From Kiritimatiella glycovorans (lineage in GTDB: Bacteria > Verrucomicrobiota > Kiritimatiellia > Kiritimatiellales > Kiritimatiellaceae): a DNA stretch of 32,000 bases. The stretch is from positions 1,710,001-1,742,000 of the forward strand of contig NZ_CP010904.1 in the NCBI RefSeq assembly GCF_001017655.1. Reading direction: 5' to 3'. A program made the translations under genes and the position numbers. A model generated the notes under the pieces. It was not told where the DNA came from. It made no database searches and saw only the letters and a program-made list of their open reading frames with translations. This document shows, in pieces, positions 3,046-31,740 of this stretch; the stretch's first letter is position 1, and each line of letters begins with the position of its first letter.

Positions 3046-4314
3046 ATGGACGACCGCTCAGAGACCCCCGCCGCCCCGCCCGCTGATCCTCAGGGATCTG
3101 CCGCGGTCATCGACCGCGGCAGTCATCCGGTGAGCCGCAGGAACATCAGCAGCGCCGCGATCAAGGTGCTCTACAGAATCAAGAACCACGGCCACCTCGC
3201 CTATCTCGCCGGAGGCGGCGTCCGCGATCTGCTTCTCAATCGCACTCCCAAGGATTTCGATATCGCCACCGACGCCACGCCCGAAGAACTGCGCGCCATG
3301 TTCAACAACTCGCGCATCATCGGGCGGCGATTCCGGCTCGTTCATGTGCTCTTCCGCGGGGAGATTATCGAAGTCTCCACCTTCCGCGCGGGGGTCAGGG
3401 CCGAAGACGCCGAACAGCATTCCGACCACGCATTCCGCACCGAGGACGGCGTGATCGTGCGGGATAACGTCTGGGGCACCGCCGCCCAGGACGCCCTGCG
3501 CCGCGACTTCACGGTCAATGCCCTGTTCTATAACATCGCCGATTTTTCGATCATCGATTACGTGGGCGGGCTCGAAGACATCGACCGGCGCACCATCCGC
3601 GTGATCGGCGATCCCACCGATCGCTTCACCGAGGACCCGGTGCGCATGATCCGCGCGATCCGTTTCGCCGCCACACTGGGATTCGATATCGAGGAGACGG
3701 CCCGCCGGTCTATCGGGGAACTTGGAGAAACCATGCAGGCCGCCTCGCCGGCCCGCCTCTACGAAGAGGTCCGCAAACTGTTCCTGTGCGGAAACGGGGA
3801 ACGGGTCTTTGAACTGCTCTCCGAGCTGGATTTCATCGAGCCGCTCTTCCCGGAACTCGGGGAGTGGCTGAAAGATCCCGAGGGCGAAGCGGGCGTACAC
3901 TGGATCCGAAACACGTTCCGCCAGCTCGACCGCTGGGTCGCGGCGGGACTGAAAGTGGATACGCCTCTCATGTTCGCGCTCCTGTTCGGGGCCTACCACG
4001 AACGCCGGGCCGAGACGCTCTGCCGGGAAGAGTCCCTGTCACCCGCCGCCGCGCTTCAGCAGGCGACGCACGATCATATCCTCCAGCTCGGCGAACGGAT
4101 CGCCATCCCGAAAAACGACCGGGCACGGATCGCCCGGATCATGGCCCTTCAGCCGCGTTTCCGTAAAACGACGCCGTCCAGAGTCCATAAGCTGGAACGA
4201 AATCCCCAGTTCCTCGACGCCTGGCTCTATTTCAAATTCGCCGCCAAGACGTTCGACCGCGACGGCAAAGAAGTGACGTTCTGGGAAAAACGCCATCGGG
4301 GGGAAGGGGGATGA
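3046..4314 (+). CDS. pcnB: poly(A) polymerase I / tRNA nucleotidyltransferase family protein (PcnB-like)
   Basis: AYLAGGGVRDLLLNRTPKDFDIAT (GG..RD...DxD nucleotidyltransferase core), RIIGRRFRLVHV and RDFTVNALFYN are typical of PcnB/CCA-adding enzymes. Confidence 0.85.
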   Translation: MDDRSETPAAPPADPQGSAAVIDRGSHPVSRRNISSAAIKVLYRIKNHGHLAYLAGGGVRDLLLNRTPKDFDIATDATPEELRAMFNNSRIIGRRFRLVHVLFRGEIIEVSTFRAGVRAEDAEQHSDHAFRTEDGVIVRDNVWGTAAQDALRRDFTVNALFYNIADFSIIDYVGGLEDIDRRTIRVIGDPTDRFTEDPVRMIRAIRFAATLGFDIEETARRSIGELGETMQAASPARLYEEVRKLFLCGNGERVFELLSELDFIEPLFPELGEWLKDPEGEAGVHWIRNTFRQLDRWVAAGLKVDTPLMFALLFGAYHERRAETLCREESLSPAAALQQATHDHILQLGERIAIPKNDRARIARIMALQPRFRKTTPSRVHKLERNPQFLDAWLYFKFAAKTFDRDGKEVTFWEKRHRGEGG

Positions 4315-4329
4315 GGGGGAGGATTTTGT

Positions 4330-4509
4330 GAGTGAGAAACCTGAAACCTGAGACCTGAGTAAGAGGGGGAGAGGTCTGAGTGAGAAACCTGAAACCTGAG
4401 ACCTGAGTAAGAGGGGGAGAGGTTTGAGTGAGAAACCTGAAACCTGAGACCTGAGTAAGAGGGGGAGAGGTTTGAGTGAGAAACCTGAAACCTGAGACCT
4501 GAGTAAGAG
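4330..4509 (+). repeat. tandem repeat, 3.75 copies of a 48-bp unit (left arm of a large inverted structure)
   Basis: Units lie at 4330-4377, 4378-4425, 4426-4473 and 4474-4509 (truncated). The unit is gagtgagaaacctgaaacctgagacctgagtaagagggggagaggtYt, and only one C/T position differs among copies. Each unit contains three consecutive heptads CCTGARN. Confidence 0.95.
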
Positions 4510-4561
4510 CTGCGGATTCCAAGGCTCACCCGCCTTTTCCCGTCGCAGCTTATGACCCCGC

Positions 4562-4604
4562 TCCTGAGTTCCACATGGGGACACCCGGGGGAATATCGTA
4601 CTCG
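4562..4604 (+). repeat. conserved 43-nt core, copy 1 (TCCTGAGTTCCACATGGGGACACCCGGGGGAATATCGTACTCG)
   Basis: 42/43 identical to 27615-27657 in the same orientation. It is preceded by a 7-bp hairpin (agctgcg 4508-4514 / cgcagct 4544-4550). Confidence 0.9.
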
Positions 4605-4682
4605 AATTATGTTCTCTCTGAATCCCGATTTCGGCTTCGATCCGGATTTCGAGATCCCATCCGCATCATCAAGCTTCCCACT

Positions 4683-4806
4683 CTCTTACTCAGGTTTCAG
4701 GTCTCAGGTTTCCCACTCATAAATCTTACTCAGGTCTCAGGTCTCAGGTTTCCCACTCATAAATCTTTCTCAGGTTTCTCACTCTCTTACTCCGCTTTCC
4801 CACTCA
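4683..4806 (-). repeat. degenerate reverse-complement copies of the 4330-4509 unit (right arm)
   Basis: Copies lie at 4683-4718, 4725-4758 and 4765-4784, plus a partial copy to about 4806, separated by ATAAAT. The reverse complement of 4683-4718 matches the first 36 nt of the left unit at 33/36 positions. Confidence 0.9.
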
Positions 4807-4809
4807 CCG

Positions 4810-5814
4810 TCACCCTCCCCCGCTCAGTTCCCTCATCGTATGCTCAAAGATGAGCCGGTCGCGGCGCGCGAGACGTGCGAGCCGCTCGCTCATGCGCTCC
4901 AGGGTGCGGAGGTGGTGAAGCGCGGTCGAGGGCGTGAGCCGCGAGGCGCCGCGGGCGAGCGCTTCGCGCCGCCCCCCGAAATGCAGGCAGGCGCAGTCGC
5001 CCGCCACGGTGAGCGTCCACAGGTCCCGGACCCAGGAGATCAATTCGGCCAGCACGGCGTTGCGCGCCTCGATCGTCCGGGTGCGGATGCGCGCCTCTAC
5101 CTCCTTGCGGTCCGGCTCTTCCCCCTCTGCCCCGATCTCGCGCTCTACTTCCGCCTCCGCTTCGGCCGCCGCCTCGTCGAGCAGATCGCACACCCGGGAG
5201 GCCAGTCCTTCCGCCTCGAGCGGATTGGAAGGAGGATACGCCTCGAGCAGATCAGCCAGGGACGCGGCGCGCGGATCGGCTTCGACACACCCCCCGCCCG
5301 ACGGCTTGAGCAGCTGGCATCGCGACCGGATGGTCGACAGCAGCGCGCCCGGACGTTCGGCGATCAGGATGAGGAGGGTGTTGTCCGGAGGCTCTTCCAG
5401 GGTCTTGAGAAACTTGTTCTGGGCGGCCGGGTGCAGGCATTCGGCCGAGAGAATGAGCCCCGCCTTCCATCCGCCTTCGTAGGCGGTCCGGGAGATCGGG
5501 GTGAGGACCTGTTCGCGGAGGTCTTCCACCCTGATCTGACGCGACTTGCTTTTCGGCTCGACCCGGTGCACGTCGGGGTGCGCGAGTTCCGCAACCCTGA
5601 CACACGGGCTGCAGACGCCGCAGGGCGGCGAGTCCGCAGTGCAGTAGAGGATCTGAATCATGGACTCGGCCAGACGCAGCGCGGCGCCGCGGGGTGCGCC
5701 GGCGATCAGATAGGCGTGGGCGAGGCGCCCCCGTTCCCGGCTCCGAAGCACGCCCTCCCAGGCCTGATCGTAACCGGCCGTATCCGGTCGGGTCACCTCC
5801 GCCCCCGGGGTCAT
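4810..5814 (-). CDS. holB: DNA polymerase III subunit delta prime
   Basis: HAYLIAGAPRGAA, a CGVCSPC zinc module, LKTLEEPP and STIRSRCQ are delta-prime/clamp-loader motifs. I chose the ATG at 5814, which overlaps the tmk stop (ATGA); an alternative ATG is at 5823. The longer track ORF would overlap tmk extensively. Confidence 0.85.
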   Translation of the reverse strand: MTPGAEVTRPDTAGYDQAWEGVLRSRERGRLAHAYLIAGAPRGAALRLAESMIQILYCTADSPPCGVCSPCVRVAELAHPDVHRVEPKSKSRQIRVEDLREQVLTPISRTAYEGGWKAGLILSAECLHPAAQNKFLKTLEEPPDNTLLILIAERPGALLSTIRSRCQLLKPSGGGCVEADPRAASLADLLEAYPPSNPLEAEGLASRVCDLLDEAAAEAEAEVEREIGAEGEEPDRKEVEARIRTRTIEARNAVLAELISWVRDLWTLTVAGDCACLHFGGRREALARGASRLTPSTALHHLRTLERMSERLARLARRDRLIFEHTMRELSGGG

Positions 5815-23362: not shown

Positions 23363-23576
23363 GAGCCACGAAAAAAGCACAGGGGCAGCAAGAAAAGAAG
23401 TGCCACAAAGAAGCACAAGAAATACAGAAGAAGCCACAAAAAAGCACAAGACGCACAGAAGATCCCACAGAAGAAGCCACTTATTTCACAGCCGGAAAAG
23501 GCACCTCTCTTCTGTGTCTCCTGTGCCTTTTTGTGGCCGTTTTTCTCATTCCCCTCTTCTGTGCCCTTTTGCGGCC
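23363..23576. repeat. intra-operon spacer made of roughly 33-bp purine-rich units in direct and inverted orientation (long imperfect hairpin)
   Basis: Plus-strand units of the type GCCACAAAAAAGCACAAG..CACAGAAGA begin near 23364, 23400 and 23433. Reverse-complement units lie at 23509-23537 and 23551-23574. Segment 23433-23461 matches the reverse complement of 23509-23537 at 25/29 positions. Confidence 0.85.
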
Positions 23577-26750: not shown

Positions 26751-27479
26751 TCACCCCTGCCCCGCAATCGTCGACCGGCCGCCGTCGACCCCGATGACCT
26801 GGCCCGTGATCCAGTCCGCGTCCGACGACACCAGAAAGGCGGTCAGCGCCGCGATGTCCTGCGCCGCCCCCAGGCGCGGCAGGGGGTGCCCGGCGGCGAT
26901 CGCCGCGGCCGTCTTTTCGCTGGAAAGGATTCCCGCGGCGAGCGGGGTACGCGTCAGCGAGGGGGCCACGGCATTGATCCGGACTTGGGGCGCGAGTTCC
27001 GCCGCAAGCGATACGGTCAGTCCCGACACGGCGGCCTTGGCCATACCCATGGAGGCATGCCACTTGAATCCGCGCGCCGCGGCGACACTCGAAAAGAACA
27101 CGACCGAAGCCGGCTGTTCGCTCTGTTTAAGCGCCGGCAGCGCCGAACGCACCGCCAGCGCGGCCCCCAGCGCATTAACCCGGAAATCGCGCTCGTAATC
27201 CTCTCTTCCCAGACGGGAAAAACTCCCGAGATTGATGGTTCCCACGGCGTACACCAGTCCGGCGAGTTCGCGGCCGGCTTCCTCCGCGGCCCGCTCGAAG
27301 GTTTCGGTGTCGTTTACATCTCCCGCCGTAAAGCCCGCCTCCAGCTCTTCAGCCAGAGCCTGCAGCCTGTTTTCGCTGCGCGCGACGAGATGCAGTCCGT
27401 ATCCCCGCCCGCGAAGCTCGCGGGCGCAGGCCTCGCCTATGCCTCCCGTCCCGCCGTACATCATAATTGTTCCGGCCAT
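26751..27479 (-). CDS. short-chain dehydrogenase/reductase family protein, atypical active-site region
   Basis: GGTGGIG cofactor motif, FFSSVAA and INAVAPS. The expected YxxxK reads ...WHASMGMAKAAV... with no Tyr four residues before the Lys. Confidence 0.8.
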   Translation of the reverse strand: MAGTIMMYGGTGGIGEACARELRGRGYGLHLVARSENRLQALAEELEAGFTAGDVNDTETFERAAEEAGRELAGLVYAVGTINLGSFSRLGREDYERDFRVNALGAALAVRSALPALKQSEQPASVVFFSSVAAARGFKWHASMGMAKAAVSGLTVSLAAELAPQVRINAVAPSLTRTPLAAGILSSEKTAAAIAAGHPLPRLGAAQDIAALTAFLVSSDADWITGQVIGVDGGRSTIAGQG

Positions 27480-27495
27480 GATGCGACTCCTTTAC

Positions 27496-27556
27496 TGTGC
27501 GCACACTGTAGCAGAACCGGGAACCGGATGGGAATGAGCGCACGCCCCGGTTCTGC
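27496..27556 (-). promoter_or_regulatory. palindrome plus 11-bp perfect stem in the leader/promoter of the SDR-speA operon
   Basis: A 10-bp perfect palindrome TGTGCGCACA lies at 27496-27505, flanked by ACTGT on both sides and 17 nt upstream of the SDR ATG. The stem gcagaaccggg (27511-27521) pairs with cccggttctgc (27546-27556) around a 24-nt loop. Confidence 0.4.
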
Positions 27557-27614
27557 GAGCCTCTTGCACCCCCCGCAGCGCGGCGCCTGACGGCTTGCGT
27601 CGCGGGGCGTTTTG

Positions 27615-27657
27615 TCCTGAGTTCAACATGGGGACACCCGGGGGAATATCGTACTCG
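27615..27657 (+). repeat. conserved 43-nt core, copy 2 (TCCTGAGTTCAACATGGGGACACCCGGGGGAATATCGTACTCG)
   Basis: 42/43 identical to 4562-4604 in the same orientation. It is preceded by a GC hairpin (ccccgc 27571-27576 / gcgggg 27602-27607). Confidence 0.9.
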
Positions 27658-27757
27658 TACTCGTACTCAGCGAAGGGGTACTCGTACTCAAATTCCTTGA
27701 ATCGGGGGATGGGATCGCGCCTTCGGCGCTCCGAGTACGCGTACCGAGTACGAGTAC
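27651..27757 (+). repeat. inverted hexamer-repeat hairpin (GTACTC x5 facing GAGTAC x3 plus a partial copy)
   Basis: GTACTC occurs at 27651, 27657, 27663, 27678 and 27684. GAGTAC occurs at 27733, 27746 and 27752. Segment 27677-27689 pairs with 27733-27745 at 12/13 positions, and 27651-27668 can pair with 27746-27757 over 12 bp. The apical part contains a small GC stem with a CUUCG loop (27717-27729). Confidence 0.9.
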
Positions 27758-28132
27758 GGATTTCGTTCCCCCCCCCCTTCAACCCACCTTCATGCTCATC
27801 ATGTGAAGGTAGGGATTCTGCCGGACAGCAGAAGGCCGTCCGCAAAAGAGCGGCGCGCTTAGCCTGTCCGCCGAAGGCATAAAGGGCCGAAGGCGGAGAG
27901 ATCACGCCCTACCCGTAAATCGCAAAGATGAATGAGAAGAGCACAGGCAAAGAAATGGTGCGTTCTCTCTTCGTGGCGACCGCCGCAGGCGGGCGACGCG
28001 AAGGGTTCTGCAAGAGCCTCCTGCGTGAACTTTTTTCATTAGCTCATAAACTCAAATCGATATTCACGGGCGGGCCGGGCTGCCCTAAGATGCCGCGATG
28101 GATTGTGTACGGGTTAAACGAAGAGCCTTTGG

Positions 28133-29563
28133 ATGACGCAGAAAAAGCCGCCACAGGATAACTCCGGGCGTCTGCCGCGCAGCAGGAAATTCGCGTACGG
28201 CCTCGGCGGATTCTGCGAGTGCTTCCTCCAGAACAACTTCAACGTCATCGCCAACCCGGTACTCAATATCGGCCTCGGCGTGAGTCCCGCACTGGTCAGC
28301 ACGGCGATGACGATCCCGCGCATCTGGGACGCCTTCACCGACCCGGTGATGGGGTCGATTTCGGACAACTTCCGCTCCCGGCACGGCAGGCGGCGGCCGT
28401 TCATCCTCCTCGGCGGAATATTGACGGCGATCTCGTACGCCGCCATCTGGTGGTTCCCCCCCGGGCTCTCGGAGATGGGCTACTTCTTCTTCTTTCTCGG
28501 GATGCTGCTTCTTTTTTACACCTGCGTGACGATCTTCCTGGTGCCGTACATTGCGCTCGGGTTCGAACTGACGCCGGACTACAACGAGCGGACCCGCGTG
28601 ATGGGCTTCAAGGCGTTCTTTTCCGTCTCCGCCGGACTGGCGATGAACTGGATGTTCTGGCTGACCAAACGCCCCGTTTTCCCGGACATCGTCGAGGGCA
28701 TGAAATGGGTCGGGCTCGGATTCGGGGTCGTGATCCTGATCTGCGCGCTGACCCCGGCGGTATTCCTGCGCGAGCGCATCCTGACCGCCTCCGCGGCCGA
28801 ACACGGCGCCGGGCCGCCCAAGACGGGGATCGTGAAAAGCATCAAGGCGGCATTGAGCACGAAACCGTTCCTGCTGATCCTGCTCTGCTGCGTCAGCGTC
28901 ATCATCGGCGTCATGTCGATCATGCAGGTCGGTCTGTACCTGAATATCTATTACGTCTGCGCGGGCGACCAGGATTTCGCTTCGCAGCTGCAGGGGATTG
29001 TCGGCACCTGCTACCAGGCGGCCTCGATCGCCACCGTCCCGGCCGTCTCGTGGCTCGGGACCCATCTCGGTAAACGCCGCGCGCTCATGACGATTCTTTC
29101 TCTGGGGATCATCGGGAGCATCTCGACCTGGTTCATGCTCACCCCCGAGATGCCCTATCTGCAGATCGTGCCGCTGCTGTTCTCCGCCCCCGCGATCGGA
29201 GGTCTGTGGATCCTGGCTCCCTCGATGATCGCCGACGTCTGCGACTATGACGAGATGCACAGCCGCCGTCGGCGGGAGGGCATCTTCGGGGCGGCGTTCG
29301 GGTGGTTCACCAAACTGGGCAGCTCGGCGGCGATCCTCGCCTCCGGCTTCGCCCTCGTCTGGACCGGGTTCGACGTCTCGCTGGAGACGGGACAGATCCC
29401 GACCACCATCGTCAAAATGCGCCTGGCGAACGCCTTTATTCCCGCCTTCGCCTTCCTCATCGCGATCATCGCGATCCGCAAATATTTCATCACGGAGGAA
29501 ATGGCCAACGACATCCGCGCGAAACTGGGAAGAAACCATGAACAGAACCCGGAGACCGCCTGA
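28133..29563 (+). CDS. MFS transporter, glycoside-pentoside-hexuronide (GPH):cation symporter family
   Basis: FAYGLGG and DAFTDPVMGSISDNFRSRHGRRRPF (the GPH signature D..G...D..R...GRRRP), with about 12 hydrophobic spans. Confidence 0.88.
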   Translation: MTQKKPPQDNSGRLPRSRKFAYGLGGFCECFLQNNFNVIANPVLNIGLGVSPALVSTAMTIPRIWDAFTDPVMGSISDNFRSRHGRRRPFILLGGILTAISYAAIWWFPPGLSEMGYFFFFLGMLLLFYTCVTIFLVPYIALGFELTPDYNERTRVMGFKAFFSVSAGLAMNWMFWLTKRPVFPDIVEGMKWVGLGFGVVILICALTPAVFLRERILTASAAEHGAGPPKTGIVKSIKAALSTKPFLLILLCCVSVIIGVMSIMQVGLYLNIYYVCAGDQDFASQLQGIVGTCYQAASIATVPAVSWLGTHLGKRRALMTILSLGIIGSISTWFMLTPEMPYLQIVPLLFSAPAIGGLWILAPSMIADVCDYDEMHSRRRREGIFGAAFGWFTKLGSSAAILASGFALVWTGFDVSLETGQIPTTIVKMRLANAFIPAFAFLIAIIAIRKYFITEEMANDIRAKLGRNHEQNPETA

Positions 29564-29581
29564 CGAATCTTATAAAGCTCG

Positions 29582-30382
29582 ATGAACCCGATACCCTTCA
29601 ACCAGGCGTATTCGCTCGCGCTCTACCGTCCGGTCCTGGACGGTTTCACGCCGCCGGACGGCGAGCACGATCCCGGCCGGGATCACACCCTGACCTTCGG
29701 GATCTACGAGTTCATGGCCGCGCCAAAGCGCAGCGGGACCCTTACGATCCGGAGCGAGCGCGGGGCGAACGGAGTCGTCGTGCGCGTGGACTACGTCAAA
29801 AAGGCCCCCGGCGACTACGAAAACCTCCTCCACGCCGAGATCCACTGCGGCGGAGAGGGCTGGCCCGACCTGCGGCGCTGGAACGGCAAGTCGGAGATGC
29901 GCGGCCCCGACGGCCGGGTGCTGCCTTTGACGGAGTACGCCTTCGAGGGTCGGCGCGAATCCGCGGAGTGGGTGTTCAAGACCGGTAAGTCAGAACGACG
30001 CCTTCCACGCCTGCGTCCGGCGCTGCTCCCCTGGACCGCTTGGGCCGCCCTCGCCCGGATGAACTCTGATGAAGCGTTTTCGGCCCTCCACTGCGATTTT
30101 ATCGAGGACGGCGAACACCTTAAGCACGATCAGCGGCTCGACATCCACCGCACGGGGTCGATGGCGCTGGGCGGAAAACGCGCCTTCCTGTGGGAGGAGC
30201 GGGAACTGGACGCGGGCACGCTGCGCTCACCCTCCGAGGTGCGCGACGGCGGACGTGATCTGGAGGTAACCGCCTTCTGCCGCACGGGAGAAGGTTCCGT
30301 TCCGACGTTCTACTGGATCGCGAAACGCGAGGGGCCGCTCTTCATGACGGCCGGAACCCACGCCTGGATCAGGGAAACATGA
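29582..30382 (+). CDS. hypothetical protein (no recognisable motif), translationally coupled to the sulfatase
   Basis: It fills the gap between the transporter stop and the sulfatase start exactly, with an ATGA overlap at 30379-30382. Third codon positions are strongly G/C and the amino-acid composition is balanced (K, E, F, Y, W, D). I see no signal peptide. Confidence 0.6.
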   Translation: MNPIPFNQAYSLALYRPVLDGFTPPDGEHDPGRDHTLTFGIYEFMAAPKRSGTLTIRSERGANGVVVRVDYVKKAPGDYENLLHAEIHCGGEGWPDLRRWNGKSEMRGPDGRVLPLTEYAFEGRRESAEWVFKTGKSERRLPRLRPALLPWTAWAALARMNSDEAFSALHCDFIEDGEHLKHDQRLDIHRTGSMALGGKRAFLWEERELDAGTLRSPSEVRDGGRDLEVTAFCRTGEGSVPTFYWIAKREGPLFMTAGTHAWIRET

Positions 30383-31740
30383 ACACCACGACTGCATTGA
30401 ATCATCACGGTGCGGCGTTATCCCGCCGGGGCTTTCTCGCCGGAACGGGCGCGGCGGCCCTCGCGGCCGGAGCGGCCGGCGGGGCGCCCTCTTTTACGGG
30501 CACCCGCCGGGCCAATATCCTGCTGATCGTCTGCGATCAGCTCCGGCTCGACGCCATGTCCGCCTACGGGTGCACCGATGCGCGCACACCGAACCTCGAC
30601 CGCCTCGTTCAGGGTGGCTTGTCGTTCACGAATCATTGCTGCACCAATCCGGTCTGCGGCCCCAACCGCAGCACGATCTTCACCGGACGCATGACCTGCG
30701 AGACGGGCGTCATCCGCAACGGTCTTCCGATTCGAGACGGCATGCCGACCATGGGCGAGTGGTTCCGGCAGCAGGGCTACGAGACGATGTACTGCGGGAA
30801 ATGGCATCTGCCGGAACCCTATACGCACCGGATTCCCGGATTCGACGTCCTTCCCGTCGGCCACGGCGAGGGCGACCTCGTCGATCCCTTCGTCTCGCGT
30901 TCGGTATCGGCCTGGCTCAGGAACCGTCCCGTCCGCGCCAGCCAGCCCTTTCTGGTCGTGGCCGGCTTTCTACAGCCGCACGACATCTGCCACTGGAAAC
31001 TCAATGCGCGTCACTACATGAACGACCGCGTTCCGTTCGAGGGGCTGCGGGAGGCTATGCCGTCCCTGCCGCCCAACCTCCACCTCGTGCCTGAGATGCC
31101 GCGCCGGCTCGCGCAGCACAACCATCTCGAGGGGCTGACCGATCTCGACTGGACCCAGTACCGGCACGTCTATTTCCGCCAGGTGGAGATGCTCGACGCC
31201 GAAGTCGGGCGCCTGCTGGACGCGCTGGAGTCTTCCCCGCACGCGAAGGACACGATCGTCCTCTTCACCTCCGACCACGGCGAACACGCCGGCTGCCAGG
31301 AGAAGGTCACCAAGTGGACGCCCTTCGAGAGTTCGACGACCGTGCCGTATATCTGGTACGCGCCCGAACACCTGCCCGCCGGGGTCGTGGACCGCGAACA
31401 TCTCAGCTCGACGCTCGACCTGTTTCCAACCTTCTGCGGCGCGGCGGGGATCGCCCCGCCCGGCGGAGTCAACGGACAGAACCAGTTTCCCCTCGTGCAG
31501 GGCAACCCGATGGAATCGCGGGAGTTTGCGCCGGGCGAATTCCTGTTCGAAGGTCGCTACCTGCGGACGACGGAGTTCAAATACGCGCGCTACGGCGATG
31601 ACCCGGTCGAAATGCTCTTCGACCTGCGCAGTGATCCGCTGGAGACGAACAATCTCTACCGCGATCCGCAGTACGCCGAGACGCTGCGCGCACTGAGAAC
31701 CCTGCAGCAGGAATACGAAGCCGGACTGGACAAAGCATGA
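30379..31740 (+). CDS. Tat-exported sulfatase (S1 family, Cys-type)
   Basis: Twin-arginine signal SRRGFLAGTGAAALAAGAAG, NILLIVCDQLR metal-binding start, the CxPxR formylglycine motif VCGPNRSTIFTGR, and TSDHGE. Confidence 0.9.
   Translation: MNTTTALNHHGAALSRRGFLAGTGAAALAAGAAGGAPSFTGTRRANILLIVCDQLRLDAMSAYGCTDARTPNLDRLVQGGLSFTNHCCTNPVCGPNRSTIFTGRMTCETGVIRNGLPIRDGMPTMGEWFRQQGYETMYCGKWHLPEPYTHRIPGFDVLPVGHGEGDLVDPFVSRSVSAWLRNRPVRASQPFLVVAGFLQPHDICHWKLNARHYMNDRVPFEGLREAMPSLPPNLHLVPEMPRRLAQHNHLEGLTDLDWTQYRHVYFRQVEMLDAEVGRLLDALESSPHAKDTIVLFTSDHGEHAGCQEKVTKWTPFESSTTVPYIWYAPEHLPAGVVDREHLSSTLDLFPTFCGAAGIAPPGGVNGQNQFPLVQGNPMESREFAPGEFLFEGRYLRTTEFKYARYGDDPVEMLFDLRSDPLETNNLYRDPQYAETLRALRTLQQEYEAGLDKA

Follow-up and report, generated by a model that had tools for sequence, protein, structure and literature searches.

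An intergenic box of Kiritimatiella glycovorans beside a hairpin that may have grown by replication slippage and template switching

In the stretch of 32,000 nucleotides of the Kiritimatiella glycovorans genome analysed here (the window, in which all positions are given), a 43-nt box occurs twice, and the copy at 27615-27657 runs directly into a hairpin built of GTACTC and GAGTAC hexamers. Our preferred reading, to which we assign a probability of about one half on the strength of sequence analysis, is that the box is a lineage-specific, non-coding intergenic repeat, and that the hairpin beside it would have grown by replication slippage, with template switching keeping its arms complementary. 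The box probably adjoins the stem without forming one machine with it, because the same genome builds array hairpins where there is no box.

The hairpin and core copy 2 lie in a 653-nt gap between a divergent short-chain dehydrogenase (SDR) gene and an MFS-sulfatase operon. At 100% identity, the MFS transporter, the sulfatase and PcnB of the window each match an NCBI protein of K. glycovorans. From left to right, the features of this locus are as follows.

26751..27479, minus strand: SDR gene, the divergent left neighbour.
27570..27614, plus strand: GC-rich, terminator-like hairpin with TTTTG, just 5' of the core.
27615..27657, plus strand: core copy 2, the conserved 43-nt box, TCCTGAGTTCAACATGGGGACACCCGGGGGAATATCGTACTCG, 42/43 identical to 4562-4604.
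27650..27689, plus strand: 5' arm, starting with the final 8 nt of the core, with three GTACTC copies in all, then a purine-rich spacer of 9 nt and GTACTC x2.
27690..27732, plus strand: apical region of 43 nt with two small predicted hairpins (27692-27710; 27712-27732, with GCGCC-TTC-GGCGC).
27733..27758, plus strand: 3' arm, reading GAGTAC, GCGTAC, C, GAGTAC, GAGTAC, G, that is, a 13-nt unit x2.1.
27759..27777, plus strand: tail GATTTCGTT, with CGGATTTCGTT between the 3' arm and the C run, then C10.
27783..27814, plus strand: CCCACCTTCA...TGAAGGTAGG hairpin in a C-rich, G-poor tract.
28133..31740, plus strand: right operon, encoding an MFS_2 (GPH) transporter, a 266-aa protein without a family match and a sulfatase.

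The first-pass annotation had placed three GTACTC copies after the core, then an 8-nt interruption, two more copies and a 43-nt apical region. Three copies are indeed present in register (27651-27668), with the first inside the core and the second starting at the core's last base, so that two extend beyond it. The interruption counts 9 nt (27669-27677, AGCGAAGGG), and the second array (27678-27689) and the apical region (27690-27732) are as described. On the 3' side, the three GAGTAC copies reported earlier lie at 27733 and, as a pair, at 27746-27757, with a variant copy, GCGTAC at 27739, and an extra C between. The two helices of the earlier description, of 12/12 and 12/13, were recovered, the former as a perfect inverted repeat, together with a longer perfect repeat of 14/14 (27650-63 with 27745-58); an inverted-repeat search shows that two pairing registers are possible among the repeats.

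Removal of the 14-nt GTACTCAGCGAAGG brings the 5' arm and the reverse complement of the 3' arm to 25/26 identity, and the structure is thus a 26-bp quasi-palindrome with one 14-nt bulge on the 5' arm. Two hexamers make up a 13-mer, which each arm contains in duplicate. The core's final 8 nt supply the first 8 bp of the stem, and the GTACTC repeats continue the core in register, which bears out the proposal that the arms beside core copy 2 are an amplified hexamer from the core's 3' end and its reverse complement. The hairpin is not a chance feature: the 12-mer GTACTCGTACTC, allowing at most one mismatch, occurs five times against 0.02 expected, each time within the 27650-27758 hairpin, and 0/200 shuffles fold as well as the hairpin region. 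The region has a fold z-score of -4.5 as RNA of the plus strand, -3.6 as RNA of the minus strand and -4.3 as DNA; the advantage of the plus strand is only 6 kcal/mol and comes from G-U pairs within a single small apical helix. Restriction-site bias was rejected as a source of the GTAC cluster, since GTAC occurs in the window at the expected frequency (99 vs 104).

The C10 run announced by the earlier annotation follows the hairpin at 27768-27777, and five of its residues can pair with the core's G5 (27640-27644). The window has no longer homopolymer, and this one, lying upstream of the sulfatase operon, may be prone to slippage. When 27611-27800 is folded, CCCA and GCTCA of the 27783-27814 region pair with TGGG and TGAGT of the core. 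Local folds at both loci allow the core's TGAGT and TGGG(G) to pair with downstream CTCA and CCCA(C); with two sequences and repeat-rich partners, this predicted pairing is a hint. The motif GCCGAAGGC/GCCTTCGGC is repeated (27719, 27868, 27886) on the way from the element to the MFS start, and the 27820-27900 region contains a paired CGGAC...GTCCG; these segments suggest further structure in what may be a long leader. To the left of the core, a perfect 11-bp inverted repeat, GCAGAACCGGG/CCCGGTTCTGC, lies at 27511-27556, and no plus-strand gene lies upstream of the terminator-like 27570-27614 hairpin. This hairpin and the inverted repeat could belong to a small RNA read from the plus strand and antisense to the SDR leader, or to an operator.

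What is conserved between the two copies of the box? Their sole mismatch is C/A at core position 11. A blastn-short search found these two copies in the 32-kb window and no others, and no window shuffle gave a match to the core's central 26-mer. The upstream flanks show no significant similarity (p = 0.55); for the downstream flanks, p = 0.06-0.11 comes from a few collinear short blocks, and homology was not accepted. The core is abutted by CCCCGC and AATTAT at locus 1 and by GTTTTG and TACTCG at 27615-27657. The earlier claim of a 43-nt head common to two loci with unrelated arms is thereby upheld. The isolated 43-mer is not palindromic and folds like its shuffles (z -0.1 to +0.7); the core is conserved as sequence, not as a hairpin. 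A small protein-coding gene was rejected: the reading frames of the two copies diverge right outside the 43 nt, and a 137-aa minus-strand ORF over core copy 2 has a GC3 of 0.63 vs 0.73-0.87 in real genes. Identity at 42/43 positions with sharp edges is beyond slippage, and some copying or conserving process is needed. Conservation across loci 23 kb apart could reflect a recent copy, gene conversion, a sequence-specific binding site or an sRNA seed.

Core copy 1 has quite different surroundings, which we call locus 1.

4313..4509, plus strand: left array, a 48-nt unit x4.1 with GARACCT heptamers, beginning on the pcnB stop codon.
4562..4604, plus strand: core copy 1, the 43-nt box, within the apical portion of the giant hairpin between pcnB and dnaX.
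4669..4805, plus strand: right array, ~3.4 inverted 40-nt units, ending 4 nt before the dnaX stop codon.

Here the whole convergent pcnB/dnaX gap (4313-4805), from stop to stop, is one ~500-nt hairpin with z = -9.8. The arrays stand on both sides of the core, 52 and 64 nt off, and core copy 1 is held in the 159-nt centre between them. Duplications are nested in a hierarchy of 7, then 48, then 197 nt, the left arm carries purine-rich extra segments, and identity within arms (98-99%) exceeds complementarity between arms (81-93%). The two strands fold alike, in keeping with transcription from both of the convergent genes. The array units contain stop codons in all three plus-strand frames. PcnB (window 3046-4314) has 422 aa vs ~402 aa in most relatives, and alignments cover ~94% of the query. 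The first, degenerate array unit encodes both the extra C-terminal tail (...KRHRGEGG) and the stop codon, so that the array looks as though it had grown into the end of pcnB and added ~20 residues to PcnB. The first-pass annotation had likened these arms to the core's 5' end. The likeness comes down to one shared 7-mer, CCTGAGT, and its score is matched by 7-10% of shuffled cores (p 0.07-0.10), so a derivation of the locus 1 arrays from the core was rejected. Nested self-insertion of a palindromic unit was also rejected, as the interleaving of left and right units that it predicts was not seen.

A third tandem-array hairpin has no core at all and lies inside the polyamine operon.

23380..23575, minus strand: locus 3, tandem-array hairpin without a core.

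Two minus-strand genes border locus 3, a saccharopine-dehydrogenase-family gene with its stop and a decarboxylase gene with its start. Purine-rich units of ~31 nt, x2.4 in the left arm, stand opposite an inverted copy, and the 30-nt arms are 87% complementary. The transcribed minus strand folds 15 kcal/mol more stably than the plus strand, with 10 vs 4 G-U pairs. This asymmetry toward the transcribed strand suggests that the hairpin was shaped at the RNA level, and it is what selection on the RNA, rather than on the DNA, would be expected to leave.

The 32 kb therefore contain three array-built hairpins, one of them without a core, and at all three the numbers of units on the two arms are roughly equal. 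As locus 3 demonstrates, array stems do not require the core. Long inverted repeats number 2 in the 32 kb of the window; the background loci, 2.1 Mb in all and including a set fetched by ClpX from unrelated phyla, have 1.4-3.7 per 100 kb. The density is somewhat higher in the window, on counts too small to carry weight. A soil-metagenome contig (L156, 4776-5134; PcnB match of 47% identity) carries a 33-nt array of 7 overlapping copies opposite a single inverted copy, with 54-nt arms of 85% complementarity. Structures of an array plus an inverted copy thus also occur in unrelated bacteria.

These comparisons bear on the proposal that a conserved head and a hypervariable stem form one element. 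The head is indeed common to both loci and the arms are private to each, but the reading as one unit is not supported: there are two examples, their architectures differ (arrays flank the core at locus 1, whereas both arms lie 3' of the core and overlap it at 27650-27758), and locus 3 has no core. With n = 2, a box-plus-stem unit is indistinguishable from a short repeat lying in the two largest intergenic gaps. A real functional link may nevertheless exist, as both cores adjoin array hairpins.

How might such a stem grow? Judging from its anatomy, ordinary replication errors could have built it, and the enzyme that had been suggested to copy core ends would be unnecessary, since slippage and template switching suffice (PMC8794818). 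Slipped-strand mispairing would have amplified the hexamer at the 3' edge of the box from 6 to 13 to 26 nt. Intramolecular template switching, in which the reverse complement is copied, would have made the opposing arm or kept the arms matched, and a later 14-nt insertion would have produced the bulge on the 5' arm. Slippage would explain the in-register, hierarchical growth and the higher identity within than complementarity between arms; template switching would explain why the 3' arm is exactly complementary to the core end with its expansion, and why unit numbers are similar on the two arms at all three loci. Template switching can create a perfect stem in one event and can homogenise and expand the arms of an inverted repeat (PMC8794818), and homogenisation and enlargement of such arms by template switching are also described in the abstract of a second report (PMC13100816). 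That the two arms have almost the same number of repeats at each of the three loci could in addition reflect selection for pairing, and not mutation bias alone.

Relatives of the element were sought widely. The core's central 20-mer, ATGGGGACACCCGGGGGAAT, has 0 exact matches in GTDB species genomes, JGI metagenomes and IMG/VR, a search that perhaps did not extend to the rest of the source genome, and blastn-short found no match to the core in 162 fetched loci totalling 2.15 Mb. A blastn search of 27560-27810 against phage and plasmid collections returned noise (E 0.8). The closest non-self homologues of PcnB, the MFS transporter and the sulfatase are 50-63% identical; K. glycovorans is without a close relative in the protein database, and no further K. 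glycovorans sulfatase paralogues are among the best 120 matches listed. In relatives, 37-50 nt follow pcnB and 9-327 nt precede the MFS gene, and nothing like the array hairpins or the core is found there. In the literature, we found no description of intergenic repeats for K. glycovorans, the first cultured member of the Kiritimatiellota.

Both core copies fall in the window's two largest intergenic gaps, copy 1 between convergent genes (pcnB/dnaX) and copy 2 between divergent ones (SDR/MFS), as expected for a context-independent repeat. Could the box instead be a piece of mobile DNA? It would then be a remnant or target of mobile DNA (a solo IS end, a MITE fragment or an att-type core) that settled in hairpin-rich intergenic DNA or has a preference for it, and the stems would be unrelated local structures. 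We consider this unlikely, although it fits the sharp edges, the 98% identity, the unrelated flanks and the independence of gene context, and although 75 transposase genes and 12 putative islands have been reported for the K. glycovorans genome (PMC5148204). On inspection, the flanks of neither copy contain the direct repeat of a target-site duplication, and as terminal inverted repeats the core ends have GAGT/ACTC in common and nothing more. Nor did the genome, metagenome or viral collections yield a further exact match to the 20-mer, with the reservation noted above for the source genome. A MITE of the Correia or BOX type was rejected on related grounds, as terminal inverted repeats and a target-site duplication are lacking and the inverted repeats are internal and differ between loci. 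No transposase gene was found in the 32-kb window, and no tRNA or tmRNA genes were found.

The two cores, at 4562-4604 and 27615-27657 and in the same orientation, are the exact ends of a 22.7-kb minus-strand block of ~22 housekeeping genes. The genes between them include dnaX, tmk, cysS, clpX, clpP, tig, rho, coaE, fpg, trpA, coaX, nadC, leuCD, the polyamine genes and speA, and the ends of the block are a convergent and a divergent strand-switch point. The window has a G+C content of 64.7% and a GC skew that is negative throughout, with no break at either core copy. An island bounded by the two cores as att direct repeats was rejected because its cargo is housekeeping genes, with no integrase among the ~22, and because the skew does not break; these same features weigh against the box as mobile DNA. 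A recent inversion of the 22.7-kb block was likewise rejected, on the uniform GC skew.

We think it doubtful, and somewhat less probable than mobile DNA, that the two loci encode sibling sRNAs with a common 5' box (promoter plus seed, or seed) and different 3' stem-loops, the one at copy 2 running on the plus strand from ~27615/27655 to 27767/27800. A conserved single-stranded box beside stable hairpins is a typical sRNA layout, the plus strand folds slightly better, and by its length the 43-nt box could suit a promoter from -35 to +1. A terminator-like hairpin ending in T4 lies just 5' of the box, so that the box would not belong to an upstream transcript; in the terminator scan near core copy 2, the small 5' hairpin at 27594-27610 alone qualifies, weakly. 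However, a scan for sigma-70-like promoters (-35 and -10 each at least 4/6, spacing 16-18 nt), which did not cover this phylum's promoter types, found none in 27300-28300 or 4200-4900, the best hexamers reaching 3-4/6. The terminator scan did not report the GTACTC/GAGTAC hairpin, whose stem is followed by GGATTTCGTTC10 and no U-run; an intrinsic terminator was rejected on this ground, and the proposed sRNA would have no U-tract terminator after its hairpin. At locus 1, the box is buried in the 500-nt hairpin between convergent genes, and a transcript from it would run antisense into dnaX. No homologue was found in the genome, metagenome and viral collections or in the 2.15 Mb of loci. Rfam gave 0 matches at gathering thresholds in the whole window; at E up to 10, its one match in 27480-28132 was a 12-bit sok match (gathering score 59) at 27852-27909, outside the element. 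With no match near a gathering score, membership of any Rfam RNA family (6S, Y RNA, ribozymes, riboswitches, type I antitoxins) was rejected, as were a type III toxin-antitoxin antitoxin array and CRISPR, the neighbours being SDR and MFS genes and the repeats being inverted pairs without spacers.

Still less probable, in our view, is a contingency switch, in which changes in hexamer number or in the C10 run would alter hairpin strength or spacing and thereby expression of the MFS-sulfatase operon or the SDR gene. Such a switch would make sense of short tandem repeats and a C10 run together upstream of an accessory operon for polysaccharide use, and of the two pairing registers that the repeats allow. 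Three hexamers, though, are a short tract for frequent slippage, and base frequencies predict ~0.9 runs of ten C or G by chance per 32 kb. Core copy 2 ends 476 nt before the MFS ATG at 28133, in agreement with the ~475 nt first given; the element sits 355-476 nt before this ATG, the scan for sigma-70-like promoters found none there, and core copy 1 has no downstream gene to control.

We regard it as quite improbable that the box is the recognition or priming site of a process not yet described, or a new class of structured RNA, that seeds long stems from its own terminal bases. Least probable of all is a DNA-level protein-binding site, with the boxes acting as polar fork barriers or domain boundaries around the 22.7-kb minus-strand block: they are non-palindromic, share one orientation and lie exactly at both strand-switch points, but this is a single observation, the GC skew is unchanged across the window, there is no candidate binding protein and a binding site would leave the hairpins unexplained.

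How does a lineage-specific repeat beside a slippage-grown hairpin, the reading we prefer, compare with known systems? MIRUs of mycobacteria are tandem 40-100 nt intergenic units in direct arrays without an inverted partner arm, and form dispersed families. They fill intergenic gaps within and between operons and touch stop codons, and here too the pcnB stop is where locus 1 starts, and locus 3 is found inside an operon; the K. glycovorans arrays differ in being inverted pairs private to each locus. REP/BIME and ERIC elements of enterobacteria and Correia elements of Neisseria are co-transcribed, lie at operon 3' ends and between convergent genes, and are involved in mRNA stability and in processing by RNase III/E. 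Like the present element, they are extragenic and form hairpins (PMC3049150). In these families, however, the conserved part is the palindrome, whereas the K. glycovorans 43-mer is non-palindromic and the palindrome is locus-specific. A GTAG-type foot, inverted ends with a TA duplication and high copy number, which belong to these families, were not seen for the two box copies in the window. Judged as a REP/BIME element, whose unit is an imperfect palindrome of ~35 nt, bears a conserved tetranucleotide at its 5' end and is recognised by a RAYT transposase, the core was rejected, since it is not a palindrome and the window has no transposase gene.

The BOX elements of Streptococcus pneumoniae (boxA, boxB in n copies, boxC) are likewise small, modular intergenic repeats with conserved and variable tandem modules; they are predicted to form a stem-loop when transcribed, and their arrays gain and lose units readily (PMC3049150). 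They show no sequence similarity to the K. glycovorans box. In BOX, boxB is family-wide and lies in the loop, whereas the K. glycovorans tandem units are locus-private and form the stem; BOX also has terminal inverted repeats and >100 copies, against a box without such repeats and with 2 copies in the window. Quasi-palindrome template-switch mutagenesis with hairpin birth (Ripley model; Monttinen and Loytynoja 2022) would yield perfect 12-14 bp arms as exact reverse complements of sequence close by, and spreads changes from arm to arm (PMC8794818), but it is a mutational process and no element family, and it explains the stem and not the conservation of the 43-nt box. On the best reading, the element resembles BOX, ERIC and REP in kind and is a member of none.

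What might the hairpin do? If it is functional, the analogy with these families suggests that it would most likely be a passive RNA structure after co-transcription, serving for processing, for stability or as a barrier. Among modular intergenic repeats whose tandem modules vary, BOX folds as RNA and influences the genes beside it (PMC3049150), and a co-transcribed hairpin here could similarly stabilise, cleave or insulate transcripts, as in BOX, ERIC, REP and Correia elements (PMC3049150). For the locus 3 hairpin at least, the G-U bias supports relevance at the RNA level.

For annotation, the window carries a warning: within 32 kb, array hairpins that touch stop codons fill three intergenic gaps. 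Were the box to seed its own stems, each genomic copy would carry a private, self-templated hairpin, grown from the GTACTC 3' end here and from the CCTGAGT 5' end at locus 1, and should the box turn out to be multi-copy, with a stem of its own at each copy, this would indicate an element or RNA class not yet described. On the ordinary reading, the K. glycovorans locus would provide a clean natural example of the birth and lengthening of a hairpin, with the stem lengthened by hierarchical slippage and its arms matched by reverse-complement copying, in an isolated lineage.
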